Source: a virus. From it: DNA of 64,000 nucleotides. The position numbers were made by a program, and so were the translations under genes. The stretch is from UHGV virus genome UHGV-0373904; one strand, given 5' to 3'. Below the pieces are notes generated by a model. It was given only the letters and a program-made list of their open reading frames with translations, was not told the DNA's origin and ran no database searches. Shown in pieces: positions 1 to 61,539 of this stretch (positions are counted from its first letter, which is position 1; each line of letters starts with the position of its first letter).

Positions 1-95
1 TTAGTATAAAGTACTTTACAAGGGGCTTATAGTTCGATAAAGTAAGCCCCAGATAAAGAGCTTTACCACTAAATCCTAAATTGGAGAACTTAAAA
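1..95 (+). repeat. Early intergenic element copy 1 (near-identical to 806-894 and 1147-1235): hairpin ggggcttat..taagcccc plus conserved leader
   Basis: About 88-bp unit repeated 3x nearly identically. Contains TTTACA(15-20)-N17-TAAAGT(38-43) promoter-like spacing, GC hairpin 22-50 and leader ending in GGAG 9 nt before the ATG. Confidence 0.6.
15..43 (+). promoter_or_regulatory. Candidate sigma70-like promoter embedded in repeat element (TTTACA-N17-TAAAGT)
   Basis: Hexamers with 17-nt spacing seen in sequence; the same arrangement recurs in copies at 806-894 and 1147-1235. Non-canonical -10. Confidence 0.35.
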
Positions 96-500
96 ATGGC
101 TATTAATAATCGTGAATTATCAATCTTAAAAGCACGTTTGACCGTTAACCGGATTAATGTCATCACGTCATCAGCACCAGATGAAACACTGCAAAACATT
201 ATTGGAAAGATTCAAAGTGTTATCTTAGACGTTGAAAGTGTAAAAAACTCATTGGCTGACGTTGCAGCAGGTATCACGCTAGACGGTGCACAACATGAGA
301 TGTCCGACATGTTAGGCAAATCAAAGGTAATGAATAAAGAATTAGACTTGAAGATGTTTAGATTTGCTGTTAAAGTGTGGCTATCCGTCGAGTATGACGC
401 CAATTTTGCAATTGCTGATTTCTTTGCCACTTGGTTACAACGTAATTTGACAAATCATGATTTTCGTGATATCTGTGATGCAATTTATGCAGAACTCTAA
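96..500 (+). CDS. Hypothetical early protein
   Basis: ORF track gives 81..500 (TTG start); the ATG at 96 lies 9 nt after GGAG in the conserved leader. No recognisable motif. Confidence 0.55.
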   Translation: MAINNRELSILKARLTVNRINVITSSAPDETLQNIIGKIQSVILDVESVKNSLADVAAGITLDGAQHEMSDMLGKSKVMNKELDLKMFRFAVKVWLSVEYDANFAIADFFATWLQRNLTNHDFRDICDAIYAEL

Positions 501-535
501 AAAAAAAAAAACTGTTGACACTGATTTTTAGATAG

Positions 536-606
536 ATTAAATTACACATCAACGGGAGGCAATAACCTCCCTACTAAGTAAAGTCCTTAAACTAGGAGAT
601 TCTAAA
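536..606 (+). promoter_or_regulatory. Intercistronic hairpin (gggaggcaataacctccc) plus conserved leader ACTAAGTAAAGTCCTTAAACTAGGAGAT
   Basis: Same leader found upstream of ORFs at 2187, 3321, 3649; hairpin sequence differs but pairing is preserved. Confidence 0.55.
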
Positions 607-804
607 ATGGCTATTATTAACGGCTTAACCATTGAAACAACACATATCAAAGACATCAAAGTTGGTGATGTAGTCCTTTCCCACGGCGTAGAGAAAACTG
701 TCACTGCAAAGGATATCAAAGAGGATTCTTTCATGGGTAGGACTCTCTTCGGTGATTCTTATTGCTTAGGTTATCTTGCAGTTTTAAAAGTTGTCAAAAA
801 TTAA
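607..804 (+). CDS. Hypothetical early protein (65 aa)
   Basis: ORF with ATG 8 nt after GGAGAT of the conserved leader. Confidence 0.5.
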   Translation: MAIINGLTIETTHIKDIKVGDVVLSHGVEKTVTAKDIKEDSFMGRTLFGDSYCLGYLAVLKVVKN

Positions 805-805
805 A

Positions 806-894
806 TAAAAAGTACTTTACAAGGGGCTTATAAGTCTGTACAGTAAGCCCCAGATAAAGAGCTTTACACAATCCTTAAACTAGGAGATTAAAAA
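806..894 (+). repeat. Early intergenic element copy 2
   Basis: aaaagtactttacaaggggcttataagtctgtacagtaagccccagataaagagctttac...ctaggagat; loop differs from copies 1 and 3 but the stem is retained. Confidence 0.6.
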
Positions 895-1146
895 ATGATG
901 AACTATCTCAATATCCCTGATACCTGCCGACTGTTGACACGAGAAGAAAACTTGGGTAAACCTTTTCTTTACCACATGCCAGACAACACACCAAAAACTT
1001 ATAGTTACAATGTCAACCGTTTTACCGCATACGCTGCAAAGAACGGTTATAAGTTGGTCACTCAAAAAGTAATGCTGGTTACAATCGCTGACGAGATTCC
1101 TACGGTTGCAGTTAAACTAATTTTCTCAAAAAAAAAAAAAAGTTAA
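895..1146 (+). CDS. Hypothetical early protein (83 aa)
   Basis: ORF following repeat element and GGAG. Confidence 0.5.
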   Translation: MMNYLNIPDTCRLLTREENLGKPFLYHMPDNTPKTYSYNVNRFTAYAAKNGYKLVTQKVMLVTIADEIPTVAVKLIFSKKKKS

Positions 1147-1235
1147 ATAAAGTACTTTACAAGGGGCTTATAGTTCGATAAAGTAAGCCCCAGATAAAGA
1201 GCTTTACCACTAAATCCTAAACTGGAGATTCAAAA
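1147..1235 (+). repeat. Early intergenic element copy 3
   Basis: Near-identical to 1-95. Confidence 0.6.
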
Positions 1236-1799
1236 ATGAAATGCTATCACGGAACTACCCTCAAAAACTTTGTAAACCTGCTGAATGGTGGCGACAAGCC
1301 GGAAGGAATCTGGAACTGCTCATACATGGATGATTGTTTCTACGTTTACCCAATGAACAAGATTATCAAAACGGAATGTCTGGAAGATGAGGAAGATTCT
1401 TACATTCGTGAACGCTGCATTCAAAACGCTTTAGAATCTGGGCTTATTACGGCAGCTTTCCAAATGGAAACGCAGGACGTAATTGTCATTGAGATGGATA
1501 TCCCAGAGGAAGAGCTAGAGGATGATTATTCTTGTGACAACATGAGCGATATCGCCAGCTTTACCGGACACTTTGATAAAGGTTGGGTTATTGGCCTTCA
1601 CTCGACGAAATTTAGTGCGATGTATGCACCTTTCTTTGTACCAGATGCAACTAACCGCAATTTAGGTTATGTTGACGATGATTTGTTAAGTATGGCGAAA
1701 ATTGTACAGAATAGCGGTGATAGTTCCGTGTTTTGTGACCTGCTGGATAAAATTACCAATAATCTCACAGAGCGCAATTTAAAAGACTTTTTAGGTTAA
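1236..1799 (+). CDS. Hypothetical acidic early protein (187 aa); candidate DNA-mimic/anti-restriction-type protein
   Basis: ORF after repeat element; strongly acidic stretch EMDIPEEELEDDYSCDNMSD and overall D/E-rich composition. Function is inference only. Confidence 0.55.
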   Translation: MKCYHGTTLKNFVNLLNGGDKPEGIWNCSYMDDCFYVYPMNKIIKTECLEDEEDSYIRERCIQNALESGLITAAFQMETQDVIVIEMDIPEEELEDDYSCDNMSDIASFTGHFDKGWVIGLHSTKFSAMYAPFFVPDATNRNLGYVDDDLLSMAKIVQNSGDSSVFCDLLDKITNNLTERNLKDFLG

Positions 1800-1862
1800 T
1801 CAGTACAAAGACACCAACTTCCAACTTAAGGCCCATACAGGGCCATTTAAAGGGCTTAAATC

Positions 1863-2105
1863 ATGCTTACAACCGTTTATCTTATCCTTTCTATTTGTAA
1901 TGGTCATTCATGTGATTTTAAAGGGCTTGAGGAGTTTACAGGGAGTAAAGAAAATGCTATTCAAGTTTGCCAGATAGCAAGACAAGACTATCCCGCCAGT
2001 GATGATATTCAATGCTACTTTAAGACAGAAGATGAAGACGGCGTCTATTTTGACAGTGTCGATGGTCAATATGAAATTATCATTGAAAAGACTAGACAAG
2101 CCTGA
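1863..2105 (+). CDS. Hypothetical early protein (80 aa)
   Basis: ORF preceded by hairpin ggccc-atacag-gggcc. Confidence 0.45.
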   Translation: MLTTVYLILSICNGHSCDFKGLEEFTGSKENAIQVCQIARQDYPASDDIQCYFKTEDEDGVYFDSVDGQYEIIIEKTRQA

Positions 2106-2117
2106 TAAAAGTCTGTA

Positions 2118-2186
2118 AATTGTCAATCAACGGGGAGGGAATGACCTTCCCCACTAAATAAAGTCCTTAAACTAGGAGATTCTAAA
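2118..2186 (+). promoter_or_regulatory. Intercistronic hairpin (ggggagggaatgaccttcccc) plus conserved leader
   Basis: Leader CACTAAATAAAGTCCTTAAACTAGGAGATTCTAAA precedes the ATG. Confidence 0.55.
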
Positions 2187-2528
2187 ATGGCTTATGTAAC
2201 TGTAATTACCGATAAAGAAGATTCATCTTGGTCAACTCAAGTCAGTGATAAGATGTCGCCTATGCAGTGCCTAAAATACTTTGAGCAGTGGAACAAAGGC
2301 GAGGATGTCAGCCCCTTTCAAGTGATGCAAATCATCCATACAGATAACGAAGGAAACAAAACGACACTTAATAGCGAGTATTACGCAAATCGTTTTGAGA
2401 GTCGAGTTGAAACGATGAAGGGTCTGCGTGAGGCCGGATATGGGCACATTGCCGCCTTGTTATGGGATAGCCTGCTAAAAAATCAGCGTATCAGCTATGT
2501 AAAACCTGAAAAAATATTCATCAGTTAA
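2187..2528 (+). CDS. Hypothetical early protein (113 aa)
   Basis: ORF after conserved leader. Confidence 0.5.
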   Translation: MAYVTVITDKEDSSWSTQVSDKMSPMQCLKYFEQWNKGEDVSPFQVMQIIHTDNEGNKTTLNSEYYANRFESRVETMKGLREAGYGHIAALLWDSLLKNQRISYVKPEKIFIS

Positions 2529-2560
2529 TCAATAACTTACAAAAAACTTTTAAAAAAATG

Positions 2561-2589
2561 TTGACAATCCCTCTTGACATTGGTAACTT
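2561..2589 (+). promoter_or_regulatory. Candidate sigma70-type promoter (A-tract, TTGACA, 17 nt, TAACTT)
   Basis: aaaaaaTGTTGACAatccctcTTGACAttggTAACTT; tandem TTGACA and inverted repeat ccctc/gaggg across the region. Confidence 0.45.
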
Positions 2590-2726
2590 TGTTCGAGGGG
2601 GTTTATCTAAAAGGGATTCACTTAAAAGATTCTTTATAGATAAACTTAAAAATTGCTTGCAATCACTTTCTAAAAATCCTATAGTATCTATCAAGCAAAA
2701 CAACTTCCTAAACTGGAGAAATCAAG

Positions 2727-3254
2727 ATGAATAAGTTCACAGCAATCAACACTATTCGCTCAAAAGACGTAATGAAAAAGCCTGTCAAGGATACTTTCGA
2801 ATTTACCCTGAAAGATAAAACTTTTGCAGTTATCACGAAAGGGGAAGATAAGAAATATTACATACATCGCCCAAATCAGCAAATGATAACAGCTAACAGC
2901 TTTATGAAGGCCGTAGCGGTTATCCTGCCGGATTATATGGTTATCGTCGCAGAAATTCACGAAATGGCTATCAAGGCGACTAAAAACGAGCTAAACCAAT
3001 ACAAAATGGCTTATGAACGCTCTATAAAGTCTCATAACCTTTTTATTGCAATTTTCTACACTGGCGTGTCTGCTACTGGTACGGGCAATCAACAACACCC
3101 AATCTATGAAGTTGAAAAACTGTTTACAAGTGAATACAAAACAGATATCTTTAAAGTAACGTTAGGCAAGGCATTAACAGACTTAATCAAGCTTTACGAA
3201 AAATCTTTAAAAAATTTAGAAAATGCACTTGACGAAACGTTATCAAATCTTTAA
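2727..3254 (+). CDS. Hypothetical early protein (175 aa)
   Basis: ORF with RBS ctggagaaatcaag-ATG. Confidence 0.55.
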   Translation: MNKFTAINTIRSKDVMKKPVKDTFEFTLKDKTFAVITKGEDKKYYIHRPNQQMITANSFMKAVAVILPDYMVIVAEIHEMAIKATKNELNQYKMAYERSIKSHNLFIAIFYTGVSATGTGNQQHPIYEVEKLFTSEYKTDIFKVTLGKALTDLIKLYEKSLKNLENALDETLSNL

Positions 3255-3320
3255 AGTATCTATCAAGGGGAAGAAATCACTTCCCCACTAAATAAAGTCC
3301 TTAAACTAGGGGTTATCAAG
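3255..3320 (+). promoter_or_regulatory. Intercistronic hairpin (ggggaagaaatcacttcccc) plus conserved leader
   Basis: Leader CACTAAATAAAGTCCTTAAACTAGGGG. Confidence 0.55.
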
Positions 3321-3584
3321 ATGGAAAACGTAGAATTAACCACACTATTGCAGATTGCAACTGACAAAGAAGATGTAGCACTGTTTCACCGTATCGAAAG
3401 CGATTTATTCAATGGTGAAATCATCAAAGAATCTTACGAAGTTGTCGGATTCAAAGATGGTAAAACATTTGGATTCTTTGACCTCGAAAAAGGCAACGCT
3501 GTTACAAAATATGATGTTTTATCTTGTGAGATTCTTACAAAATACAACGAAAAAAGGCTTGCAACATACGCCAATATGCAGTAA
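3321..3584 (+). CDS. Hypothetical early protein (87 aa)
   Basis: ORF after conserved leader. Confidence 0.5.
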   Translation: MENVELTTLLQIATDKEDVALFHRIESDLFNGEIIKESYEVVGFKDGKTFGFFDLEKGNAVTKYDVLSCEILTKYNEKRLATYANMQ

Positions 3585-3585
3585 A

Positions 3586-3648
3586 TTACTAATTAACGGG
3601 GGATGACCTCCCCCACTAAGTAAAGTCCTAAACTGGAGAATCTAAATT
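3586..3648 (+). promoter_or_regulatory. Intercistronic hairpin (gggggatgacctccccc) plus conserved leader
   Basis: Leader CACTAAGTAAAGTCCTAAACTGGAGAAT. Confidence 0.55.
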
Positions 3649-3897
3649 ATGTCAACTATCCGCGTAACTGTTAATGCTTATGGCTGCCACGAACTTGATG
3701 CAAAATTCGATATCGGTGGAACAAATAACACCTTTGACCTTATCAAAATGCTGATTCAGCAGGTGCTACCAGATTATAACCCTACCGATGACTTTTGGAA
3801 GGACGCTGTAAAAGAAGCCATAAACGAGGAATATCACTACCACTACTGGGGAGAAAAAATTGTCTCCCTGTACTACAACAAGCAAGATTATAACTAA
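3649..3897 (+). CDS. Hypothetical early protein (82 aa)
   Basis: ORF after conserved leader. Confidence 0.5.
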   Translation: MSTIRVTVNAYGCHELDAKFDIGGTNNTFDLIKMLIQQVLPDYNPTDDFWKDAVKEAINEEYHYHYWGEKIVSLYYNKQDYN

Positions 3898-3907
3898 TCG
3901 ACGCAGC

Positions 3908-3960
3908 GGGGCTAAATAGCCCCAGATACCTGAAAAGCTCCTTCTCATAGGGGCTTTTTT
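3908..3960 (+). terminator. Tandem terminator-like hairpins ending the + strand early cluster
   Basis: ggggctaaatagcccc (3908-3923), then aagctcc..ggggct followed by T6 (3935-3960). Confidence 0.5.
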
Positions 3961-5569
3961 ACGTCTATGTAATAGCCTCTATACAACCCTTTCCCTTTCC
4001 TTCCTAGAATCTATCCCACTAATTCGATAGAATCTATCTCATACCTTAAAAAGCAATAACTCTATAGTCTACTCTATAACCTTTTATCAAATCAACTTAA
4101 ATAAAAGCCAATAACCCCAGAAAGGGGATGGCCCATTTAAACGCTCTATAAAGCTCTATAACAGCCTTATCAACCTAACTTAAGGGATTGCATTAACCAA
4201 CCTTAAAAAGCTCTTTACAGGGCTTTATAGAGGCTTAAAAGAATCTTATAAGGTTATAAGCTTTATTATCTCGTTAGCTATCTTGTGAATATCTAAAAAG
4301 GGCTTGTTAGTGTCTTAAAAGTATGTTATAGGGGCTTAAAAGTTACTTCAAAGTTACGTAAAAGAAGCTATGAAGTTACGTAAATGCTAGCCCCCTTAAC
4401 ATTTTCTTAACAATTTCTTAACAATCCCTACATAGTTATGCTTGTTAGAGACTTGTTAGCCCCTTGTTAAATCTCTGTTAAGACCACGTAAAAGCCTTGT
4501 AAGAACCTTTGACATAGCCTTTAAAGCCCCTGTAAAGCCCTATAAAGAGGTATCTGTACAGTTGGGGTGTAATTACTAGGAAGAGGCTTAAAAGGGCTTA
4601 CAAGGAGCTATAGAGAGCTTTTAAGAGGTATGTTTAAGGAATCACTAAGAAAGGAAAGGGAACGATAAGAAAGAGATAGTGACCATGTTAATAGCTTGTT
4701 AAAAAGATTAAACACTTGTTAGAGACTTGTTAATTATCTTAACAAAATAACTCTTAAAAATTAACTTGTTAGCTCTTGTTAGTCATCTGTTAAGACTCTG
4801 TAAAGACCATGTATCGACTGTTAAGAACTTGTTACAGCCTTGTTAGTTCTGTTAAGAATCTGTTAAGACCTCTGAAGAGATGTTAAGAGATTGAGAGAGT
4901 TGTTAAGAGATTGTTAAGGATATTTTAAAATTCTGCAAAGTACTTGTAAGGGAGCTGTTAAGGGCTACCAAGCAGATATACATCTTCTACAGATATTTTT
5001 CAGTTCCTTCAAAGACCCTAAAAAATGACTTGATAGTCCTATTTTATAAAAATTTTAAAAATCTGAATAATTACCTATACAGTCTTTCTAAAATACAGGT
5101 AATAACAGGCTTATAAGATACCTTGTTAGTACCGTGTTAGACCTTGTGAGATAAGGTCTGTAAAGATATTCCTGTTAAGTTTGTTAAAACAGTCTATATA
5201 GAGGCTTAGTAATACCTAGTGAACACCTATAGAGAGTGTCATAGCTGACATAGAGATTAAGAGGTGTATAGGAGCTTCTAAGAAGGTGTAGAGAGATGGT
5301 TAAGGTGATTGTATAGGTTGTTAAGAAGGATTGTTAGAAGAGTGTTTAGAAGGGCTATTTAGAAGGGCTATACAGAGGGCTATTAAGACCACTAGATAGT
5401 TACTAAGATACTATATAGTACTATATAACTATATAGAGAGTAAGATTAAGAAGGTTGTTAAGAAGGATAGATATTTTATTCACATATGATGGTGACCCAG
5501 AGGTTGGGACAACCGATAAAATTTTATAAAAATTAAAAAGCCCCCAATTAAGGAGGCTCTTAAGATATT
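3961..5569. repeat. ORF-free 1.6-kb field of degenerate YTGTTARR / CTTAACAA repeats
   Basis: No ORF of 60 aa or more on either strand; about 30 copies of ttgttaag/ttgttaga/ctgttaag in both orientations, densest at 4395-4500 and 4715-4920; stop codons in all frames. Confidence 0.8.
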
Positions 5570-6193
5570 TTAAATCAGGCTTTCTAAAACTGTCTTCAAG
5601 GATGACTTAGTTGTCTGGTAAAAATGAGTGAACCCATTATTGTTATCGAATATCTGCATCATGATATCATCTCCCTTGATTGGGTACACTCGGATATCAT
5701 AGTGAAACCCATTAAAGACAGCAGAACCATTACAGAACACACTAAAATCACTTGCTGAGATGTACTCTTCATGACCTGTGATTTTTATACAGACACCCTT
5801 ACTTGGTCTCTTAGGGTTGATATCTTCCATCACAGACATACTCTGTCCACCAAGAGATACCATAGTGACCACTTTACGGTTCTTCTGTTTAAAGTACATC
5901 TTAACTTTCTGCAAAGTGTCTTCATAGAATGGATAAGACCTTTCTACAAAGATTCCTTCAAGTGGCTCTTTACCATTTTCAACTTCTCGGTTATGCCGTA
6001 CTGCAAAGATAATTTGTTCGAACCAGTCAAGATTTTCTTCGGAGAGTGCTTCCCGAACATCCTTCCAGTCAAGTACTAAGTAGTTACCTTCAACTTCTTT
6101 TAAGTTATCTTTTTCCATATCTATCACACCATTATCGTAAAACTTGATATTCTGGTACTGCGAATTTATTACTATTGTTCTTGATGAGGTCAT
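5570..6193 (-). CDS. Hypothetical protein (207 aa)
   Basis: ORF; overlaps the next ORF by 62 nt so the true start may be internal. Confidence 0.5.
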   Translation of the reverse strand: MTSSRTIVINSQYQNIKFYDNGVIDMEKDNLKEVEGNYLVLDWKDVREALSEENLDWFEQIIFAVRHNREVENGKEPLEGIFVERSYPFYEDTLQKVKMYFKQKNRKVVTMVSLGGQSMSVMEDINPKRPSKGVCIKITGHEEYISASDFSVFCNGSAVFNGFHYDIRVYPIKGDDIMMQIFDNNNGFTHFYQTTKSSLKTVLESLI

Positions 6194-11208: not shown

Positions 11209-12341
11209 TATGCCTCCCCTGCTGGGTTAACTGTAACTGTTGCTGCATTAGATGTTACAGAGCCACCTGCACCAGTAACTACACAGGTGTAGCTTCCTGA
11301 ATCAGCAGCGGTTGCACCTTCTTTAGTGTAAGTTGCAGCGGTTGCATCAAGGATATCTTCCTCACCTTTCTTCCACTGGTAACCTGTTGCACCTGTTGCC
11401 ACAACATTCAGTGTTAAGGTCTCACCTTCATTGATTTCTTGATTGGTTGGCTGTTGAGTGATTACCGGAAGTGCATTCACAGTAACTGTTGCTGCGTTAG
11501 ACGTTACAGAGCCACCTGCACCTGTTACAACGCAAGTGTATGAACCTGCATCTGCTGGCAGAGCACCAGACTTGCTATAGGTATCATTTGTAGCTGAAGG
11601 AATGTCAGAGCCATCTTTCTTCCACTGGTAACCTGTTGCACCTGTTGCAGTAACTGCTAAGTTGATGTTTCCACCTTCATTAATAGTCTGGTTAGAAGGT
11701 TGCTTGGTAATCACAGGTAGTGCGTTCACAGTCACTGTTGCTGCATCTGAGGTAACACTTGTTCCACCTTCTCCAGATACAACACAAGTGTATGAACCAG
11801 CGTCAGAAGGTGCTACTGACTGTTTTGTGTAAGTTGCAGAATTGGCACTAGGGATGTCCTCACCATCCTTTTTCCACTGATATCCAGTGGCGTTAGTTGC
11901 TAGAATGGTTAGAGTAAGTGTGCCACCCTCATTAACTGTTTGACCTGTTGGCTGCTGAGTAATTGCTGGTGGCTTGATAGCATCCTTCAACTTAGCATTC
12001 AACATTGAGAACGGCTTAACTCTTGCCAACCATTCACAGTAAATTGTGTCAACATCTTTACCATTGATGATTGCATACTGCAAATCCATGAAGAAATCAG
12101 CAGTTCTCATCTGTGCACCAACACTGTAAAGCAATTCATCACTAAATGGAACTTTGTAGTCTGGTTTGTAGTCAAACTTCTCAACTTCTGCGATATCAGC
12201 TTCAGGCCAATATGAACTATAGGTAAGTGGTAAAATAGCTTCTTGATATGTTCTAAAATCATATCTCTTACCAGCCTTTACATTTGCAATGAAGCCCTTT
12301 ACAAATTCTTTGAAGTCTGGGTAAGTCTTTGCTTTAATCAT
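11208..12341 (-). CDS. Protein with three tandem Ig-like repeats
   Basis: C-terminal half has three ~90-aa repeats (..QPTxQTxNEGxxLTLxxxATGATGYQWKKDGxDIPSAxxxTYxxxxAxxxDxGSYTCVVxGxGGxVTSxAATVTVN). N-terminal ~120 aa is paralogous to the product of 12338..12709. Confidence 0.7.
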   Translation of the reverse strand: MIKAKTYPDFKEFVKGFIANVKAGKRYDFRTYQEAILPLTYSSYWPEADIAEVEKFDYKPDYKVPFSDELLYSVGAQMRTADFFMDLQYAIINGKDVDTIYCEWLARVKPFSMLNAKLKDAIKPPAITQQPTGQTVNEGGTLTLTILATNATGYQWKKDGEDIPSANSATYTKQSVAPSDAGSYTCVVSGEGGTSVTSDAATVTVNALPVITKQPSNQTINEGGNINLAVTATGATGYQWKKDGSDIPSATNDTYSKSGALPADAGSYTCVVTGAGGSVTSNAATVTVNALPVITQQPTNQEINEGETLTLNVVATGATGYQWKKGEEDILDATAATYTKEGATAADSGSYTCVVTGAGGSVTSNAATVTVNPAGEA

Positions 12342-12709
12342 TTCTTTTTAGCCTCTAAACGTGCGTTTAATCTAAAATAGCCTTTATGTTGTGGAGATAC
12401 ATCACTAACAACAATACCTTCAACTTTATAACCCTTGCCAATTACATACTGGATATCCATAAGAAACGTACCAAGCCCAACAATGTGGAACATCGGGTAT
12501 AGTAACTTATCTGAATCTGGGAGTTTAATTTCTGGGTTATAGGTGGGTTGTTCGGCAGTTGGTGTAATATCCTCTTCAGGCCATTTACTCATTCTCCATG
12601 TTAAAGGTGATGCAATAACATCGTTGAGATTATATCTTTCACCATTCTCTACGGAGTGGATATAGGATTGTAGGAAGCAGTAAAAGTCTTTTGCACTCTT
12701 AGCCTTCAT
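12338..12709 (-). CDS. Hypothetical protein, paralog of the N-terminal domain of the Ig-like repeat protein
   Basis: Shared motifs (W..KWPEEDI, DxQYxIxxG) with the N-terminus of 11208..12341. Confidence 0.55.
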   Translation of the reverse strand: MKAKSAKDFYCFLQSYIHSVENGERYNLNDVIASPLTWRMSKWPEEDITPTAEQPTYNPEIKLPDSDKLLYPMFHIVGLGTFLMDIQYVIGKGYKVEGIVVSDVSPQHKGYFRLNARLEAKKK

Positions 12710-12733
12710 TAAACATCCTTATAAATAGAGAAA

Positions 12734-12752
12734 GGGGCATCAGCCCCTGTTT
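12734..12752 (-). terminator. Terminator-like hairpin (aggggc-atca-gcccct)
   Basis: Perfect GC hairpin between convergently arranged ORFs; followed on the - strand by a T-rich run. Confidence 0.45.
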
Positions 12753-12756
12753 ATAC

Positions 12757-13347
12757 TCAAGCTTTGGTCTTAAGTAGGTTCTTAAGTTTTTTGAGATTCA
12801 TGCTCTCGTCAAACTTAAAACCAAATCCATTGACATAATCAATGAACTCGGATTTCTTACTCAGTGATAGTGCGTAACTCATATCGAAGTTATTACTTGT
12901 TTCTGCATCTGGACTAGAGTTCACATCAAATGAAATTTCTGTAGACTCTTGCTTGATACTTCTCATATTATCAATCAATAGACAGGTATAGTTTGCTGGA
13001 TAGAAGTTAACACTGCCATCAACATATCCATACTTGTTATTGTGAATAAGGCTGGAAAATACCTTAAGAAATGTTTCTGAGTCGTGGCATACAAGTTTGA
13101 ATTGACTGCATTCTCCAAGAGCCACTAAAGAGTAAGGACTTTCACTATCAATGTCGTAGTTTGGGTTTGATGTTGTAACCGTCACACGCATCAGGTTATT
13201 TGCAATAGTCTTCTGCTTTAAAGAATTTGGAACATAGTGAAGACCTCTATCACACTGATTAACTAGCTCTTTCAATAGGTCATTTGCATATGGTGAATTA
13301 ATTGATACAGAGCCATCACTATTATAATTAAAACTTACTGTTAACAT
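12757..13347 (-). CDS. Hypothetical protein (196 aa)
   Basis: ORF. Confidence 0.5.
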   Translation of the reverse strand: MLTVSFNYNSDGSVSINSPYANDLLKELVNQCDRGLHYVPNSLKQKTIANNLMRVTVTTSNPNYDIDSESPYSLVALGECSQFKLVCHDSETFLKVFSSLIHNNKYGYVDGSVNFYPANYTCLLIDNMRSIKQESTEISFDVNSSPDAETSNNFDMSYALSLSKKSEFIDYVNGFGFKFDESMNLKKLKNLLKTKA

Positions 13348-13574
13348 TTTTCAGTTCTCCTGCGATTTATGATTTTGCTGCAATAGAGAAACGAAGTAAA
13401 CTCACTGGAAGAAACCATTAAGTGTTGTTCACTAGATTGAGCCATTGCCCTGAAATACATTCCAGTCAAAGCATCATAGTGACTATTCTTTCCAATTGAG
13501 GTTATATAGCCATGACTCTTTGCAGTTTTATATAAATCTATAATATCTGCGATTTCTAATTGGGAACTACACAT
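13341..13574 (-). CDS. Hypothetical protein (77 aa)
   Basis: ORF at the head of the - strand block. Confidence 0.4.
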   Translation of the reverse strand: MCSSQLEIADIIDLYKTAKSHGYITSIGKNSHYDALTGMYFRAMAQSSEQHLMVSSSEFTSFLYCSKIINRRRTEKC

Positions 13575-13815
13575 AGATAATCCTCTTGTCTTCTGTAATT
13601 TTGAAAGAACAGGTACAGACCAATTTCAGAGGATGAATAGTAGAGTAACTCTACCCTTTTTGATTCCTTACAGTGATTGGTATTTTTACCTTTCTTCGGG
13701 TTATTTGATTTTCTCATTAAGTCTCCTTTGTAGAACAAGGCAGACCTACAGCTTAAGTAAGATGGTACAGTAATCCATACAACAAGTCAAGAACTATTGC
13801 AAGTTAAAAAAGTTG

Positions 13816-13856
13816 TTGACAAAGTACTTGACAAGGTGTAGGCTTATAAATACTTA
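13816..13856 (+). promoter_or_regulatory. Conserved tandem-TTGACAA element in divergent promoter region (second copy at 56649-56675)
   Basis: agTTGACAAagtacTTGACAAggtgt followed by tataaa; a near-identical 27-mer occurs at 56649-56675 in the other divergent intergenic region. Confidence 0.45.
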
Positions 13857-13965
13857 GAAGATAACTTAAAAGGTTCCTCTAAAAAGGCTATTTAAACAGA
13901 TATCTTTCTGGATATCTATCTTTTATCTTAAAAGCCTTTTAAGAGGTCTTATAAGAGGCATACCA

Positions 13966-14349: not shown

Positions 14350-14378
14350 TTGACAGACTCTATAAAGTTACTCTAAAG
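14350..14378 (+). promoter_or_regulatory. Candidate promoter with embedded 9-bp inverted repeat (tgacagact / agtctgtca)
   Basis: aaaagatgTTGACAgactctataaagttactctaaagtctgtca; the -35 hexamer forms one arm of the palindrome. Confidence 0.45.
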
Positions 14379-14418
14379 TCTGTCACATCAAACAACAAAT
14401 GAGAGAAGAGAGTAAAAT

Positions 14419-15834
14419 ATGAGCGAGTTATTTAAACATGCGCACCTTCATGCAGGTCGAACTGAAAATGGTGCTGTAAACCATACTTCATCAATGTCTG
14501 CTCTTGTAGATTTTTACAAAGCTGCTGGTTCAAGCCGTAGCAATGTAGAAATCTTACCAGACTTGTTCTACAAAGCTTTGCGTGAGGATGTTGATGTTGC
14601 AGTTCGTATTTTGCTTCACATGCGAGATGTACGAGAAGGTATGGGTGAGCGTAAAGCCTTCAGAACTGTTTTACTTCAAGCAATCGAAGACAAAGTTTTA
14701 GAGCCTACACAGGTTCTTCGTATTATGGATAAGATTGCAGAACTTGGTCGTTTTGATGACTTCAAAATCTTCGTAGGTACTCGTTTTGAGACAGATGCCT
14801 TTAAGCATTTAGAAGCAGCATTACTAGACCATGAGACAGCAGGTTTAGCAGCCAAGTGGTTACCACGAGTAAAACCACGACACAAACAGTTTGTAAAACG
14901 TTTCTGCAAGTTTGCTAACTTGAGTGAGAAAGAGTACCGCACACTGCTATCTGCACTGTCTGATACGGTTGAGCAAAAAATCTCTGCTAATGAGTTTGGT
15001 AAGATTGATTACAGCAAGATTCCTTCACTTGCTGCTGCACGTTACCAAAAACTGTTTAACCGTAAAGATGGAGAGCGCTACAAAGCTTACATCGAGTCCT
15101 TATCAAAGGGTGAGACTAAGATTAATGCTGGTGCTGTTTACCCATACGATGTGATTAAATCTGTTAAGTATGGTAATGCAGATGTTGCTAATGAGCAGTG
15201 GAAAGCACTACCAAACTGGATGGCAGAGGGTGAAAACATTCTATGTATGTCTGATGTTTCAAGTTCAATGTCTTGGGTGAATTTTGGTTCAATTACTGCT
15301 CTTGATATTGGTGTTTCACTTGCATTGTATGTAGCAGAACGTAATACAGGTTGCTTTAAGAATGAGTTGATGGTTTATTCAACAAACCCTCACTTCATTG
15401 AACTGAGTGGTGATTTACGAAACCGTCATCGTCAGGTAATGCGTCATGTTGAATACGGTTCAACTAACTTACAAGCAGCTTTTGACCGCATTCTTGAGAC
15501 AGGTAAGAGAAACAACTTGACTCAGAAAGATATGCCAAGTAAGCTTATCATCTTCTCTGATATGGAGTTCAATCAGGTTGACGGTGCAAATGGTCGTACA
15601 AACTTTGAAGCAATTCGTAGTAAGTACAAAAAAGCTGGATACGAAATGCCACAACTGGTATTCTGGTACTTAGCAAACCGTAGTGGTACTTGCGAAGTAT
15701 CTGTTAAGGATAACGGTGTAGCAATGGTATCAGGGTTCTCTCCAGCCACTTTAAAAGCTCTTCTTGGTGGTGAGAAGTTTGACCCAATCAGCGTAATGCT
15801 CAAAGCAGTAATGATTGACCGTTACATCTGGTAA
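14419..15834 (+). CDS. vWA-like (MIDAS motif) domain protein, 471 aa; TROVE/Ro60-like RNA-binding protein is a hypothesis
   Basis: C-terminal half has DxSxS in ILCMSDVSSSMS followed by hydrophobic strands (LIIFSDMEF); N-terminal ~260 aa looks helical. Sits directly upstream of the tRNA array. Confidence 0.55.
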   Translation: MSELFKHAHLHAGRTENGAVNHTSSMSALVDFYKAAGSSRSNVEILPDLFYKALREDVDVAVRILLHMRDVREGMGERKAFRTVLLQAIEDKVLEPTQVLRIMDKIAELGRFDDFKIFVGTRFETDAFKHLEAALLDHETAGLAAKWLPRVKPRHKQFVKRFCKFANLSEKEYRTLLSALSDTVEQKISANEFGKIDYSKIPSLAAARYQKLFNRKDGERYKAYIESLSKGETKINAGAVYPYDVIKSVKYGNADVANEQWKALPNWMAEGENILCMSDVSSSMSWVNFGSITALDIGVSLALYVAERNTGCFKNELMVYSTNPHFIELSGDLRNRHRQVMRHVEYGSTNLQAAFDRILETGKRNNLTQKDMPSKLIIFSDMEFNQVDGANGRTNFEAIRSKYKKAGYEMPQLVFWYLANRSGTCEVSVKDNGVAMVSGFSPATLKALLGGEKFDPISVMLKAVMIDRYIW

Positions 15835-15851
15835 AAAGTTTTAAAAAGGGT

Positions 15852-15880
15852 ATTGACAATGTGTTTAATACCCTTTAATA
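15852..15880 (+). promoter_or_regulatory. Sigma70-type promoter (TTGACA-N17-TAATAT) overlapping a 9-bp perfect inverted repeat
   Basis: aaaaagggtaTTGACAatgtgtttaataccctTTAATAT; inverted repeat aagggtatt / aataccctt spans -35 to the spacer. Confidence 0.65.
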
Positions 15881-15943
15881 TGTTCTACATAGAAACGAAA
15901 TGAGAGCTTTTCTAAGATACTGAAAAATATTTTAAAAAAGTTC

Positions 15944-15972
15944 TTGACAACCACTAAAAAATAATGTTAAAG
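15944..15972 (+). promoter_or_regulatory. Candidate promoter upstream of first tRNA (A-tract, TTGACA) with inverted repeat aaccact/agtggtt
   Basis: aaaaaagttcTTGACAaccactaaaaaataatgttaaagtggtt; -10 ambiguous. Confidence 0.4.
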
Positions 15973-15999
15973 TGGTTACATAGAGTTTGAAAAGTTTAT

Positions 16000-16076
16000 C
16001 TCTGTTTAGCTCAGCTTGGTAGAGCGTTCCGTTTGGGGCGGTAAGGCCGGAGGTTCAAGTCCTCCAACAGAGACCA
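16000..16076 (+). tRNA. tRNA-Pro (anticodon TGG)
   Basis: Manual fold: acceptor ctctgtt/aacagag, T-arm ggagg-ttcaagt-cctcc, anticodon loop ttTGGgg, encoded CCA. Confidence 0.75.
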
Positions 16077-16083
16077 AATTAAT

Positions 16084-16161
16084 GTTCCAGTAGACAAAAT
16101 GGTAAAGTCACCACTCTTTCAAAGTGGATATCTGAGGGTTCAAATCCCTTCTGGAACGCCA
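16084..16161 (+). tRNA. tRNA-Glu (anticodon TTC)
   Basis: Acceptor gttccag/ctggaac, anticodon stem ccact/agtgg, loop ctTTCaa, T-loop ttcaaat, CCA. Confidence 0.8.
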
Positions 16162-16162
16162 G

Positions 16163-16252
16163 TTTTGACAGAAGACCAATTACAGCAAACTTAATCTTAT
16201 TCATCTGAAGGTAAATCGGACAAAGAAGAGATTTGGTCTGGTCATTAAGAAT
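16163..16252 (+). repeat. tRNA-array spacer element copy 1 (CAGAAGACCAAT...ATTTGGTCTGG hairpin-bounded)
   Basis: 5' cagaagaccaattacagcaa and 3' tttggtctgg can pair (agaccaa/ttggtct). Confidence 0.55.
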
Positions 16253-16329
16253 TGCGGGTATAGAGAAAGGGCGTCTCACATGTCTCATTAGCATGGTATC
16301 GGCAGGTTCGACTCCTGCACCCGCCTCCA
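16253..16329 (+). tRNA. tRNA with anticodon CAT (Met or Ile2/lysidine type)
   Basis: Acceptor tgcgggt/acccgcc (1:72 mismatch), anticodon stem catgt/gcatg, loop ctCATta, T-arm gcagg-ttcgact-cctgc, CCA. Confidence 0.65.
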
Positions 16330-16330
16330 A

Positions 16331-16403
16331 TTTTGCAGAAGACCGTATTCAGCAACAAAATACTTTTGCGGATAAAAGAAAAAACACGGTCTGGCAATGT
16401 ATT
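16331..16403 (+). repeat. tRNA-array spacer element copy 2 (CAGAAGACCGT...ACGGTCTGG)
   Basis: Same flanking motif with compensatory change (agaccg/cggtct). Confidence 0.55.
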
Positions 16404-16405
16404 AA

Positions 16406-16482
16406 GGTTAGGAAGCACATAAGGTATGTGCGGTCGCCTGTTAAGCGAATGGCACAGGGTTCGAATCCCTGACTAACCGCCA
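16406..16482 (+). tRNA. tRNA-Asn (anticodon GTT)
   Basis: Acceptor ggttagg/actaacc, D-stem gcac/gtgc, anticodon loop ctGTTaa, T-arm caggg-ttcgaat-ccctg, CCA. Confidence 0.8.
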
Positions 16483-16490
16483 AATTAAAT

Positions 16491-16578
16491 GTGTCGTTAT
16501 CCCGTAGATGGTAGCGGTGGGGACTGTAAATCCCTTGTCATTGAGACTCGGTAGGTTCGACTCCTACACGGCACACCA
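16491..16578 (+). tRNA. tRNA-Tyr (anticodon GTA), long variable arm
   Basis: Acceptor gtgtcgt/acggcac, anticodon stem gggga/tccct, loop ctGTAaa, 15-nt variable arm, T-arm gtagg-ttcgact-cctac, CCA. Confidence 0.8.
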
Positions 16579-16583
16579 ATAAA

Positions 16584-16660
16584 GGCTATGTAGTTTAACT
16601 GGAGAAAATACTCCCCTGTCACGGGAGATGATGTGAGTTCAAGTCTCATCGTAGCCGCCA
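16584..16660 (+). tRNA. tRNA-Asp (anticodon GTC)
   Basis: Acceptor ggctatg/cgtagcc, anticodon stem ctccc/gggag, loop ctGTCac, CCA. Confidence 0.8.
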
Positions 16661-16720
16661 ATTTTGAGAGGGCTATTTAGCCCCTCCCTTAAAGGGTTCT
16701 TACGAGTATCCTTTAAAGGA

Positions 16721-16800
16721 GCAGAAGACCAAATACAGCAAGAACGTATGAAAATTTCAAGCCAATTTAATTTTGAAAAATTTAAAACTTGGTCTGGCTC
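16721..16800 (+). repeat. tRNA-array spacer element copy 3 (CAGAAGACCAAATACAGCAA...TTGGTCTGG)
   Basis: Same motif; preceded by terminator-like hairpin agggc-tattta-gccct and a TTAAAGG..CCTTTAA palindrome (16661-16716). Confidence 0.55.
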
Positions 16801-16940
16801 AACAAATTTACAGAAGACCGTTTACAGCAAAACTTAAACAATCTATTTCTCGGTAAAGAAAAGGCGAAGGTTCGATTCCTTCACTCGGCAGATGTCGAGT
16901 TGGTGTAATGGTAGCACTTAAGATGATAAACAACGGTCTG
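16801..16940 (+). repeat. tRNA-array spacer element copy 4 (CAGAAGACCGTTTACAGCAA...AACGGTCTGG) enclosing tRNA-like fragments
   Basis: 8-bp closing stem agaccgtt/aacggtct; the interior holds a T-arm plus 3' acceptor-like segment next to a 5' acceptor plus D-arm-like segment. Confidence 0.55.
16863..16920 (+). pseudogene. tRNA-like fragments (T-arm gaagg-ttcgatt-ccttc plus actcggc, then gtcgagt plus D-arm-like tggtgtaatggtagcac)
   Basis: A canonical T-arm with 3' acceptor-like strand is followed 4 nt later by a complementary 5' acceptor-like strand and a D-arm; no complete cloverleaf could be folded in normal order. Confidence 0.4.
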
Positions 16941-17090
16941 GTAATTATCTTTGTAGATAAGTTATTAAGCTTACCTGTGAGTATGCGACCACAAAGGGTG
17001 AAAGGGTAAATTCTAGATTTAAACCCAAAAAGGCACATCGCTACAGACCTTAAGCAAGTCTGGGTAGCTTATCTGCAAAGATAATTTAAT

Positions 17091-17166
17091 GGAAGTGTAG
17101 CAGAATGGTGATGCGGCAGACTTTTAATCTGACAGGCGATGGGTTCGAATCCCTCCACTTCTACCA
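17091..17166 (+). tRNA. tRNA-Lys (anticodon TTT)
   Basis: Acceptor ggaagtg/cacttct, anticodon stem gcaga/tctga (one mismatch), loop ctTTTaa, T-loop ttcgaat, CCA. Confidence 0.7.
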
Positions 17167-17244
17167 AATTCACCCTTAACTGAGAAACACCTGCGCGGCT
17201 GGAAACACCCACTCAACAGTTTCTCTAACTAGGGTACTTATTCT

Positions 17245-17321
17245 GGTTCAGTCGCAGATAAGGTAATGCAGGGGTTTCATAAGCCCTATGAATGTGGGTT
17301 CGATTCCCATCTGAACCTCCA
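17245..17321 (+). tRNA. tRNA-Met (anticodon CAT); GGG/CCC in the anticodon stem is initiator-like
   Basis: Acceptor ggttcag/ctgaacc, anticodon stem ggggt/gccct, loop ttCATaa, T-arm gtggg-ttcgatt-cccat, CCA. Confidence 0.75.
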
Positions 17322-17322
17322 A

Positions 17323-17398
17323 GCTGGTATAGTTAAGAAGGTTATAACACTCCCCTGATAAGGGAACATCGGTGGTTCGATTCCACCTACCAGCACCA
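17323..17398 (+). tRNA. tRNA-Ile (anticodon GAT)
   Basis: Acceptor gctggta/taccagc, anticodon loop ctGATaa, T-arm ggtgg-ttcgatt-ccacc, CCA. Confidence 0.75.
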
Positions 17399-17413
17399 AT
17401 TTCAATAAAGTTG

Positions 17414-17442
17414 TTGACATTGAGATGTGACTACTTTATAGT
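17414..17442 (+). promoter_or_regulatory. Sigma70-type promoter inside the tRNA array (TTGACA-N17-TATAGT)
   Basis: aaagttgTTGACAttgagatgtgactacttTATAGT. Confidence 0.65.
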
Positions 17443-56648: not shown

Positions 56649-56690
56649 AAGTTGACAATGTACTTGACAAGGTGTTAATCTTTGCGAAGT
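56649..56690 (+). promoter_or_regulatory. Conserved tandem-TTGACAA element, second copy, in the divergent region between polymerase and + strand genes
   Basis: agTTGACAAtgtacTTGACAAggtgt, matching 13813-13839 at 25 of 27 positions. Confidence 0.45.
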
Positions 56691-56848
56691 GGGTTTTTAC
56701 TTAAAAGGTTACTTAACAGTTTAACTATACAGATACTTTAAAACTCTTAAAAGATTATTTAATAGCTTTTAAAAAGCTTTAAAGTATAACGTATAGAATA
56801 CGTTAAGATAAAAGATTAAAACTTAATAGCTACTTAAAAGAGGCTTAC

Positions 56849-57271
56849 ATGCAGAAAATGTTTGTTCACCCAGACATAGCTGACTTTGTTAGAGCTTTGC
56901 AGAAGTTGGAAGAACTTGACATTGCTGCTCAACGGGAATATGCTCACCATCACAGGAGAATGGTTGATATACAACATGAAATAGAGTTGTCTGAAGACTA
57001 TGAAGATGACTTAAAATGCTCTGTATTTGAGCATATGAAAGATGTTGCTACAGCGAGACGTAAAGCTAAAGACACAGTTGCTTTACTAGATTCTCTTAAA
57101 AAGAGGTTGCAAAGTGGTACAGACCTGTGTAATCTAGCATCACTGATTAACGATGTTGAAACTTCTTGGGATAGGCACTATTATCCACGTTCTGAAAAGA
57201 CACTTGACTTTTCTTCATCTGAAAACTTAAAATGTTCTAGAAAGAAACTTAACCAACTGAGAGAGAAATAA
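56849..57271 (+). CDS. Hypothetical protein (140 aa)
   Basis: ORF with RBS aaagaggc. Confidence 0.5.
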   Translation: MQKMFVHPDIADFVRALQKLEELDIAAQREYAHHHRRMVDIQHEIELSEDYEDDLKCSVFEHMKDVATARRKAKDTVALLDSLKKRLQSGTDLCNLASLINDVETSWDRHYYPRSEKTLDFSSSENLKCSRKKLNQLREK

Positions 57272-57272
57272 T

Positions 57273-58073: not shown

Positions 58074-58091
58074 GTCTTTATAAATCTTACA

Positions 58092-58115
58092 AGCCTCCTT
58101 AGTTGGGGGCTTTTT
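58092..58115 (+). terminator. Terminator-like hairpin
   Basis: agcctcc-ttagtt-gggggct followed by ttttag. Confidence 0.45.
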
Positions 58116-58134
58116 AGTAATTAAGGGAGATAAA

Positions 58135-58878: not shown

Positions 58879-58886
58879 AAGAGAGA

Positions 58887-59087
58887 ATGAAGATGAGAGT
58901 AAAAGACAATTTTAAAGTTATTGACCACCGTTTAGTGGAACTCTCATCTCTTTCCAATGAGGTAATGATTGAACGTCTTAAGAGAGTTGAATCACGAAGG
59001 AAAGAGATTGCAGATGAAATTCATGAACTGGATAAGATTGAAAATGGATTGAAGGCAGAACTACAACGAAGAGGTGCTAATGTCTAA
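58887..59087 (+). CDS. Hypothetical small protein (66 aa)
   Basis: ORF; coiled-coil-like, charged. Confidence 0.4.
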   Translation: MKMRVKDNFKVIDHRLVELSSLSNEVMIERLKRVESRRKEIADEIHELDKIENGLKAELQRRGANV

Positions 59088-61467: not shown

Positions 61468-61539
61468 TTAATGTTTGACAATAGAGTATCAACAAATTAG
61501 AATTGGTACTCTTCATAAATTGAGATAGAGGTTTAAATA

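Follow-up and report, generated by a model that had tools for sequence, protein, structure and literature searches.

Repeated promoter/stem-loop units as probable early-gene expression cassettes in the ORFan cluster of a Felixounavirus genome

The start of a 64,000-nucleotide stretch of the virus genome UHGV-0373904, referred to here as the window, holds a cluster of small genes separated by repeated intergenic units, in which promoter-like hexamers, a GC stem-loop and a conserved leader are combined. Matches of window 1-4000 to phage records identify the genome as a Felixounavirus. There are 255 matching records, essentially all Felix O1-like (Felixounavirus and relatives), and since none of them covers more than 76% of this region in one place, the region is mosaic. 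Nine small ORFan genes lie on the plus strand within 1-3900, with start codons at 96, 607, 895, 1236, 1863, 2187, 2727, 3321 and 3649. Pfam returned no match for any of the nine proteins, and all nine are taken in by PHROGs of unknown function. The cluster is the counterpart of the end of the Felix O1 ORF15-23 block, and the window begins mid-cluster; among related phages the gene number ranges from 9 (Felix O1 ORF15-23) up to about 20 (Michonne). The label "early" is a reasonable one for the cluster, though timing is not uniform across the genes. In Felix O1, published reverse-transcription PCR (RT-PCR) found the highest expression of ORF16, 20, 21 and 22 at 5 min post-infection, and that of ORF17, 19 and 23 at 25 min (PMC3185647).

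A preliminary description of this DNA had placed a hairpin followed by a conserved leader before every small early gene. This holds for seven of the nine genes and fails for those at 1863 and 2727, and the five hairpins that had been quoted were all located (554-571, 2132-2152, 3267-3286, 3598-3614, and the form GGGGCTTAT..GTAAGCCCC). The units fall into two classes, both of which are recovered as repeat families by a repeat finder. Two features had been missed: a promoter ahead of each class I hairpin, and the reach of the class II inverted repeat, which extends to about 20 bp. Units were also taken from ten related phages of four genera, Felixounavirus, Mooglevirus, Suspvirus and Kolesnikvirus. 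Class I counts given below refer to 42 units from the window and these phages, class II counts to 60 units, and the class II alignment, made with MAFFT, to 54 distinct units from the four genera. The earlier statement that hairpin sequence varies while pairing is kept is borne out, as the 16 distinct class I stems and the 22 distinct class II stems are all paired. Folded as RNA, the unit hairpins have energies between -11.5 and -15.2 kcal/mol, and comparison with shuffles gives z-scores from -2.4 to -5.3. The unit repeat is real, far exceeding what chance would give, and its kind is an ordinary one, the class of promoter/stem-loop cassettes.

Class I units in the window share one layout, consisting of an A-tract, a TTGACA-like -35 hexamer, 17 nt, TAAATT or TAAAGT as -10 hexamer, 9-10 nt, a hairpin of 6-8 bp, and the leader. 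All four lie on the plus strand. The unit before ATG 607 (499-606) carries A13 at 499-511, TTGACA at 515-520, TAAATT at 538-543, the hairpin GGGAGG/CCTCCC at 554-571, a UCCU at 584-587 that pairs with the AGGA of the Shine-Dalgarno (SD) sequence, and GGAG at 595-598, and scores 79.6 bits with a class I covariance model. The unit before ATG 2187 (2093-2186, 91 bits) has TAGACA at 2093-2098, TAAATT at 2116-2121, the hairpin GGGGAGGG/CCTTCCCC with one G·U pair at 2132-2152, UCCU at 2164-2167 and GGAG at 2175-2178. Upstream of ATG 3321 (3229-3320) follow TTGACG at 3229-3234, TAAAGT at 3252-3257, GGGGAAG/CTTCCCC at 3267-3286, UCCU at 3298-3301 and the SD variant GGGG at 3309-3312. The last unit, before ATG 3649 (3559-3648), consists of TTGCAA at 3559-3564, TAAATT at 3582-3587, GGGGGA/TCCCCC at 3598-3614 and GGAG at 3635-3638.

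Across the whole class I sample the -35 varies within TTGnnn (TTGACA, TTGCAA, TTGACG) and the -10 among TAAATT, TAAAGT and TAGTAT, and the spacer between them is 17 bp in 40 of the 42 units. The stretch from -10 to hairpin, which ends in ATCAAC, measures 10 nt in 30 units, 11 in 7, 9 in 4 and 8 in 1, that is, 10±1 in 41 of 42. The stems have 4-9 bp and the loops 3-8 nt, and the leader from hairpin to ATG spans about 20-36 nt. When units were aligned by their hairpins and no promoter was required, the resulting information profile had its peaks at TTGAC (-39 to -35), TAAAtT (-16 to -11) and CAAC and at A-tracts around -47 and -57, which lie about 8 and 18 nt ahead of the -35, with weak conservation in the spacer. 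Such a profile reads as the signature of a sigma-70 promoter with UP-like A-tracts. The promoter motif occurs at 0.13% of window positions, yet it ends 9-10 nt before each of the four class I hairpins, a comparison between paralogous units and thus not an independent test. Transcription in E. coli starts about 6-9 nt after the -10. Because the class I hairpin begins 10±1 nt after the -10, it would be transcribed, and would lie 2-4 nt from the 5' end of the mRNA.

Within the 64-kb window, matches to the covariance model are confined to 538-3649 and to the plus strand, and over the window and the ten related loci all 80 of 80 matches are on that strand. Rfam 15, searched with window 1-6000 up to E = 1, gave only a chance Phe_leader match (5531-5591, minus strand, 25.4 bits against a gathering threshold of 55). 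An extended class I helix was considered and rejected, none being consistent between units. RNAalifold predicted no structure on the class I MAFFT alignment, where stems of differing length fall out of register; realignment to the covariance model gave only modest covariation, and the stems were judged by per-unit calls instead.

Two long A-runs stand next to coding sequence. A13 at 499-511 starts within the stop codon of gene 96-500, and A14 at 1128-1141 lies inside the 3' end of gene 895-1146, where it encodes KKKK and has the counterpart CAAAGAAAG in KhF3. These runs lie where the next promoter would have its UP elements, and could alternatively be sites prone to slippage or sequencing error. 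Intergenic promoters of the form TTTTAAAAA-N4-5-TTGACA-N17/18-TAnnnT are found elsewhere in the window (14350-17440 and 56652-61500; e.g. 14350, 15853, 15944, 17414, 56652 and 61475). They have the class I A-tract and -35 layout, with neither the hairpin nor the shared leader, and hairpin and leader are therefore specific to the ORFan cluster.

Class II units precede ATG 96, 895 and 1236, again on the plus strand, and carry the hairpin GGGGCTTAT..GTAAGCCCC at 22-50, 823-851 and 1163-1191. Unit 1 (1-95), just upstream of which the window begins, has a left arm AAAGTACTTTA at 8-18, the -35 TTTACA at 15-20, a stem at 22-30/42-50, the -10 TAAAGT at 38-43 in the apical loop, a right arm GATAAAGAGCTTTA at 52-65 and GGAG at 83-86; positions 3-71 fold with -22.3 kcal/mol (z -5.2). 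Unit 2 (805-894) has TTTACA at 816-821, a stem at 823-831/843-851, TACAGT at 839-844, a right arm at 853-866 and GGAG at 883-886 (-20.7 kcal/mol, z -4.2). Unit 3 (1128-1235) begins with A14 at 1128-1141 and continues with TTTACA at 1156-1161, a stem at 1163-1171/1183-1191, TAAAGT at 1179-1184, a right arm at 1193-1206 and GGAG at 1224-1227 (-21.6 kcal/mol, z -4.6). These three copies had been called near-identical, which fits two of them; the third is more diverged (95.6%, 88.8% and 85.6% identity, with gaps). The promoter-like TTTACA-N17-TAAAGT reported to overlap the hairpin is present in each copy, with TAAAGT or TACAGT as its second hexamer.

In the class II alignment CTTTACA is essentially invariant. 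In the -10 hexamer, the leading TA and the closing T are invariant or exceed 90%, and the three bases between them vary (TAAAGT, TAAGAT, TAGTAT, TATCTT, TACAGT). The geometry TTTACA-N17-TAnnnT occurs in 51 of the 60 units, and N18 in 4 more. The left sequence UAAAGUACUUUA, which overlaps the -35, pairs with the invariant right-hand box GAUAAAGAGCUUUA, and the whole unit of about 60 nt folds into three helices: one of 6 bp, then, past a 1x1 mismatch, one of 5 bp, and, past a 3x3 internal loop (CAA/AGA), a GC helix of 9-11 bp. In this interrupted structure of about 20 bp the -35 lies in the middle helix and the -10 in the apical loop. The GATAAAG block is the most conserved one in class II because it pairs with the fixed promoter -35. 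Whole-unit folds in all four genera range from -20.7 to -25.2 kcal/mol (z -4.2 to -5.9). The hairpin that encloses its own promoter and is kept in four genera is the most interesting property of the units.

Pairing was counted on an alignment that had not been fitted to any structure. Of the cells in the 20 pairs, 95.5% are paired, where shuffles give 91.4% and sliding the partners gives 56.5% at most. Both sides have changed in 34 cells; the shuffles give 10.3, and none of 500 attains 34. At pair 26-51, 46 units have GC and 8 have UA; at pair 13-64 the count is 41 GC, 8 UA, 1 AU and 4 unpaired. Changes at pair 13-64 break the palindromes within the boxes and keep the complementarity between them, a pattern that speaks for one long hairpin rather than two separate operator palindromes. 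Two independent palindromic operator boxes flanking the class II promoter (TAAAGnnCTTTA) were rejected on the same ground, as columns 13 and 64 covary between boxes. G·U cells outnumber A·C cells by 96 to 11 (about 9:1), which points to folding of the plus (sense) strand.

For class II, transcription is predicted to start at the A of AGAUAAAG, which follows the -10 by 8 nt and lies at the upper stem's 3' foot. Because of this position, the class II hairpin would exist only in read-through RNA from upstream promoters. A T4 MotA-type middle promoter (GCTTTA-N11-TAAACT, in the class II leader) was dropped, since the start it implies lies downstream of the SD; the Felix O1 genome paper states that no MotA-like polymerase-modifying factor is apparent in that genome. 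A scan of IMG/VR with CTTTACA-N28-36-GATAAAGAG found its multi-match loci in contigs of 84-90 kb, the size of Ounavirinae genomes, and the single matches look like chance. The 147-kb record of Staphylococcus phage SA1 (GU169904.1) holds six class II matches of up to 97.8% identity at about 130056-130147, which suggests that it includes Felix O1-like sequence through chimeric assembly or contamination.

Both classes end in the same kind of leader. The leader CACTAARTAAAGTCCTTAAACTAGGAG of the preliminary description is confirmed by three matches at up to 3 mismatches, with 0.00 expected, and a fourth, gapped copy lies at 3614-3638. A short form, CCT(T)AAAYT(A)GGAG, stands before eight of the nine start codons in the window, where the spacer from GGAG to ATG, earlier put at 8-9 nt, measures 8-10 nt. 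In related phages, 107 leaders read CCT(T)AAAYT(A)GGRG, then 7-10 nt (mode 8), then ATG. A UCC(U) located 6 nt upstream of (A)GGA can pair with the SD as a conserved small stem, in a three-pair form in 87 of the 107 leaders and a four-pair form in 20, and no leader has one of the two extra bases without the other. Kolesnikvirus leaders differ in sequence and have no GGAG, and the pairing is kept (CCUU-AUA-AAGG, CCUC-AAA-GAGG). The SD-pairing stem is weak and suggestive, and its two-haplotype pattern could reflect linkage and not selection. This stem is one feature with a bearing on translation. The proposed "shared translational control" is indistinguishable from a standard ribosome-binding leader that recombination between units has kept uniform. 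Cleavage of GGAG leaders by a RegB-type enzyme was dropped, as the "putative RegB" gene of Kolesnikvirus does not match RegB and the Kolesnikvirus leaders have no GGAG. In Erwinia phage Panisse the gene so labelled (locus L006, 3049-3561, "putative T4 endoribonuclease RegB") has its matches in T4 Vs.1 homologues and the SLT lytic-transglycosylase domain; the label is probably an annotation error that has spread among Kolesnikvirus records.

The two atypical genes differ from each other. The plus-strand spacer before ATG 1863 (1800-1862) contains a 5-bp hairpin, GGCCC/GGGCC (GGCCCatacaGGGCC), at 1830-1844 with -10.6 kcal/mol. As this spacer has neither promoter hexamers nor the shared leader, the gene is probably co-transcribed with gene 1236-1799. 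Upstream of ATG 2727 (2529-2726, plus strand) lies a unit without hairpin, with TTGCAA at 2657-2662, N17, TATAGT at 2680-2685 and GGAG at 2715-2718, and the covariance model matches 2680-2729 with 29.4 bits. A second promoter-like site is found there as well (TTGACA 2561-2566, N17, TAACTT 2584-2589). The orthologues of this gene in Felix O1, AYO145A and Bas63 have a full class I unit. A block AAAAGGGATTCACTTAAAAGATTCTTTATAGATAAAC (2590-2656) upstream of the 2727 promoter is kept before the orthologue in Mooglevirus and Suspvirus and partly kept in Felix O1, AYO145A and Bas63; it is a possible site for a regulator or bending protein.

At the end of the cluster (3908-3960, plus strand), what remains of a hairpin, GGGGCTaaatAGCCCC, and the AGATA after it (3908-3928) look like a class II unit's right half and precede the terminator. 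This terminator, a stem and a T6 run at 3933-3960, is the only canonical one of the cluster, and in AYO145A and Felix O1 (t23) its counterpart carries a terminator annotation. Beyond it, an ORF-free stretch of 1.6 kb (3961-5569) separates the plus-strand ORFan cluster from minus-strand genes starting at 5570. It is crowded with short repeats of the CTTGTTA and TCTGTTAAGA type at 11-bp spacing (e.g. 4441-4501 and 4775-4824) and holds a 31-nt inverted repeat (4211-4241/4519-4549, 87% complementary). The gap has a counterpart at 12305-13928 of Felix O1 and also in other genera, and it could be a replication origin, a packaging site or a genome-end region.

Both unit classes occur in the four Ounavirinae genera, always on the plus strand, and blastn with the two unit types finds 246 and 289 records, nearly all of Ounavirinae-type phages. 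Against related phages, the window shows three indels whose two ends both fall inside units, and each has left one hybrid unit. AYO145A is without window 899-1144, and its lone unit there (locus L001, 3793-3887) matches both 805-898 and 1145-1238. KhF3 is without window ~2179-3244, and its 5084-5151 (locus L002) matches both 2110-2178 and 3245-3312, in class I units. Felix O1 is without window 613-2115, and its 10823-10900 matches both 535-612 and 2116-2193. In Citrobacter phage Michonne (locus L004, 7350-7523) two class II units stand in tandem with no gene between them and with the ATG of the first fused to the CTTTACA of the second; this empty cassette has the look of a scar left by cassette excision, or of a unit that was duplicated. 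A reading of the units as MITEs (small transposable elements with inverted repeats) or transposons was rejected, all copies having one orientation and lying in one cluster.

The existing database annotation of these units is not consistent. The AYO145A record has two annotated promoters in the region, one of class I upstream of orf022 and the other in the spacer before orf026. The Felix O1 genome paper contains the unit sequences only as 57-bp and 39-bp direct repeats, lists other promoters, and calls temporal regulation unknown. The KhF3 record labels unit hairpins as minus-strand Rho-independent terminators (2683-2703, 3548-3568, 4805-4817 and 5107-5127 of L002). These features are probably mis-assigned, because the genes there are all on the plus strand and the G·U pairs of the stems form only in the plus sense.

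We consider it likely that each unit is a self-contained expression cassette for an early gene, read by the host sigma-70 RNA polymerase. Its parts would be an A-tract, -35 and -10 hexamers 17 bp apart, a GC stem-loop that acts in the plus-strand RNA, and a leader with a GGAG SD 7-10 nt before the ATG. The sequence thus predicts a primary 5' end for each early gene, the outcome that the preliminary description had set against its own view. In class I, the 5'-terminal hairpin would slow 5'-end-dependent decay of its own mRNA and keep the leader structurally apart from upstream RNA. In class II, the hairpin in read-through RNA would mark the boundary between cistrons as a 3'-protective or attenuating structure, and possibly as an RNase III site. 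Since no canonical terminator lies between the cluster genes, nested transcripts are expected, all of which would end at 3933-3960. The units are repeated in direct orientation, and would on that account also provide homology for recombination that adds or removes gene cassettes. The architecture, the conservation pattern, the pairing, the strand bias and the indel boundaries are direct observations on these sequences.

Several points weigh against the cassette reading. A plain consensus scan of 1-6000 gives 22 promoter-like sites against 18.7 in shuffles, and the Felix O1 RT-PCR timing does not divide class I from class II. A literature search for mapped start sites or transcriptomes of Ounavirinae returned nothing relevant; promoter use and hairpin position in the mRNA rest on geometry, and promoter activity, start sites and the function of every hairpin are inferred. 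Paralogous units could have been homogenised by recombination, in which case fixed spacings and a conserved leader would come from descent and not from selection. Class I covariation is weak in one forced register, with 91.9% paired against 88.5% and 7 double-change cells. As for class II, the minus strand in the window folds about equally (-23.2 against -21.6 kcal/mol), pairing does not explain the invariant AGA on the 3' side of the internal loop, and few events may stand behind several of the compensatory changes, e.g. GGTG/CACC, which is specific to Kolesnikvirus. Finally, in the promoter-early stem-loops (PeSLs) of T4-like phages the stem-loop strongly terminates transcription, unlike the role proposed here (PMC2839356).

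The cassette reading has to be set against three others. In one of them, early transcription of the cluster yields one polycistronic RNA in which, as the preliminary description held, the hairpins serve as attenuators or as processing sites of RNase III type, and the promoter-like hexamers are incidental. Read-through RNA must indeed exist, there being no canonical terminator between the genes. E. coli RNase III substrates have about 20 bp of double-stranded RNA, in which an internal loop is allowed. Class I stems, with only 4-9 bp, fall short of this, and stem length speaks against RNase III processing of class I; these hairpins also follow a promoter of their own. Class II, at 6 + 5 + 9 bp with 1x1 and 3x3 loops, comes to about that length with an internal loop, in likeness to the early RNase III sites of T7, and the idea stays viable for class II because the unit folds into an interrupted helix of about 20 bp, which had gone unseen. 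In the Correia elements of Neisseria, likewise, an inverted repeat goes together with promoter activity and with binding or cleavage by RNase III (PMC2649163). Incidental hexamers, however, do not account for a -35, a 17-bp spacing and a TAnnnT that are kept while the spacers vary, in both classes and four genera; the class II -10 sits in the apical loop, free of pairing constraint, and yet its TA...T is invariant, and A-tracts occupy UP-element positions. A purely polycistronic cluster is thus quite improbable. A combined form can also be put forward, though we consider it rather unlikely: class II may be a promoter built into an RNase III-type processing hairpin, with start and cleavage both in the invariant AGA loop. 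If so, primary and processed mRNAs would share their 5' end and leader, the upstream message would keep a protective 3' hairpin, and cassettes would be expressed alike whatever their neighbours, which would explain their free shuffling.

The stem-loops may instead chiefly terminate or attenuate upstream transcription and so insulate the cassettes, as is claimed for the PeSLs of T4-like phages, and mRNA stability would not depend on them. The stems are rich in GC (-11.5 to -15.2 kcal/mol, and -21 to -25 kcal/mol for the extended class II helix), and the stem-loop of PeSL211/210 of phi1/RB49 cut lacZ expression about as the rrnB T1 terminator did (PMC2839356). But the hairpins lack T-runs, as had been observed before: ACUAAAUA trails class I stems and AGAUAAAG class II stems, only 1-2 U occur in the 8 nt after each stem, and a terminator scan lists no unit hairpin. 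Canonical terminators with hairpin and T-run are used elsewhere in the genome, including 3933-3960, and a terminating class I hairpin would also stop the transcripts of its own promoter about 25 nt after the start. Termination as the main function of the hairpins seems unlikely. Still less credible, and in our view very improbable, is a reading in which the inverted repeats act as DNA, either as operators of a phage repressor or as attC-like recombination sites folded in single-stranded DNA. It would suit the indels that begin and end in units, the known empty cassette, the class II arms that overlap the -35 and the start site, where a repressor would act, and the class II minus strand, which folds about as well as the plus strand in the window; the PeSL authors also speculated that GGGG...CCCC might serve as a target for a recombination protein (PMC2839356). 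Compensatory stem differences between units of one genome, however, would be ill tolerated by one DNA-binding protein. The changes at columns 13/64 lose box symmetry and keep inter-box complementarity, the 96 to 11 excess of G·U over A·C is a strand asymmetry, no recombinase or repressor was identified among the nine cluster proteins, and homologous recombination between repeats of ~90 bp suffices for the indels.

Felix O1-like phages are widely used for Salmonella typing and biocontrol, and their transcription signals are essentially unannotated. Reading the units as expression cassettes would give about 10-20 predicted early promoters per genome, correct database features that call the hairpins minus-strand terminators, and explain the mosaic gene content of the ORFan cluster. 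It would also extend the PeSL idea of shuffling via regulatory cassettes beyond T4-like phages. With their two architectures, a 5' hairpin and a promoter-enclosing hairpin, the units would make a simple test system for mRNA fate during infection, and they are candidate compact, portable expression parts.

Several known systems share part of this design. The stem-loop near the 5' end of the E. coli ompA 5' untranslated region reportedly protects the mRNA against RNase E and 5'-end-dependent decay, in work ascribed to Emory, Bouvet and Belasco in 1992. Stabilising hairpins of this sort lie with about 2-4 unpaired nucleotides at most between them and the mRNA 5' end. The class I hairpin, with -11.5 to -15 kcal/mol and a few nucleotides from the predicted 5' end, is alike; it differs in that this 5' end is a prediction, and class II transcripts would be without such a hairpin. 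The sites R0.3-R1.3 of T7 are RNase III sites between early genes that contain no promoter, transcription coming from three shared upstream promoters. Intercistronic hairpins in an early region read by the host polymerase are common to both systems, the class II upper stem, internal loop and lower stem of about 20 bp resemble these sites, and cleavage would likewise leave a 3' hairpin on the upstream message. Class I stems, in contrast, are far too short, and the phage units include a promoter.

Mobile cassettes offer a second set of comparisons. Correia elements (CREE/nemis) of Neisseria are small intergenic inverted repeats that influence the expression of the adjacent gene; they can supply a promoter, and their RNA hairpin is bound by RNase III and either cleaved or protected (PMC2649163). 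They are, however, chromosomal MITE-like mobile elements that occur in both orientations, with terminal inverted repeats and target duplications, whereas the phage units have one orientation and are restricted to one gene cluster. In lambdoid morons the gene comes with a promoter and a true terminator, and conserved repeats do not flank it; the cassettes of integrons have no promoter and depend on an integrase acting on attC. The likeness to both is that single genes move with expression signals and that cassette content varies between relatives, and the difference from integrons is that no integrase is present in the phage cluster. Both systems are discussed in the PeSL paper (PMC2839356).

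The PeSLs themselves have been described in phi1/RB49, PST/T4 and nt-1/KVP40 (Arbiol et al. 2010, PMC2839356; Comeau et al. 2014, PMC4122927), and a literature search pairing PeSL with Felix phages found no paper that applies the concept to Felix O1-like phages. Like the units, PeSLs are repeated intergenic cassettes of ~70-100 bp in a variable region of small ORFan early genes, with an AT-rich stretch, a sigma-70-type -35/N17/-10, a Gn-loop-Cn stem-loop with G·T pairs, and SD and ATG at the 3' end. The position of the stem-loop is shared, between or over -35 and -10 (class II) or downstream of the -10 (class I). The T4/PST early-promoter consensus TTTACW-N17-TAYWAT fits the class II TTTACA-N17-TAnnnT, and in both systems indels between relatives are bounded by the elements. 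The differences are equally clear. Here the lineage is Ounavirinae and not T4-like, and blastn found no sequence similarity to T4-like phages. There are two fixed architectures in place of the five of PeSLs, the class I hairpin comes after the predicted start and not before it, and the class II inverted repeat of ~20 bp pairs the -35 with a downstream box. The leader of ~25-35 nt is standardised and includes the small SD-pairing stem, and no T-run follows the stems. The picture of PeSLs also includes promoter activity and terminator activity of the stem-loop in vivo, and mini-circles. PeSLs of separate T4-like groups also differ in sequence, and the class is therefore defined by architecture and not by homology. 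By this measure, PeSLs are the closest described kind, and all of their features that can be read from sequence are present in the units.

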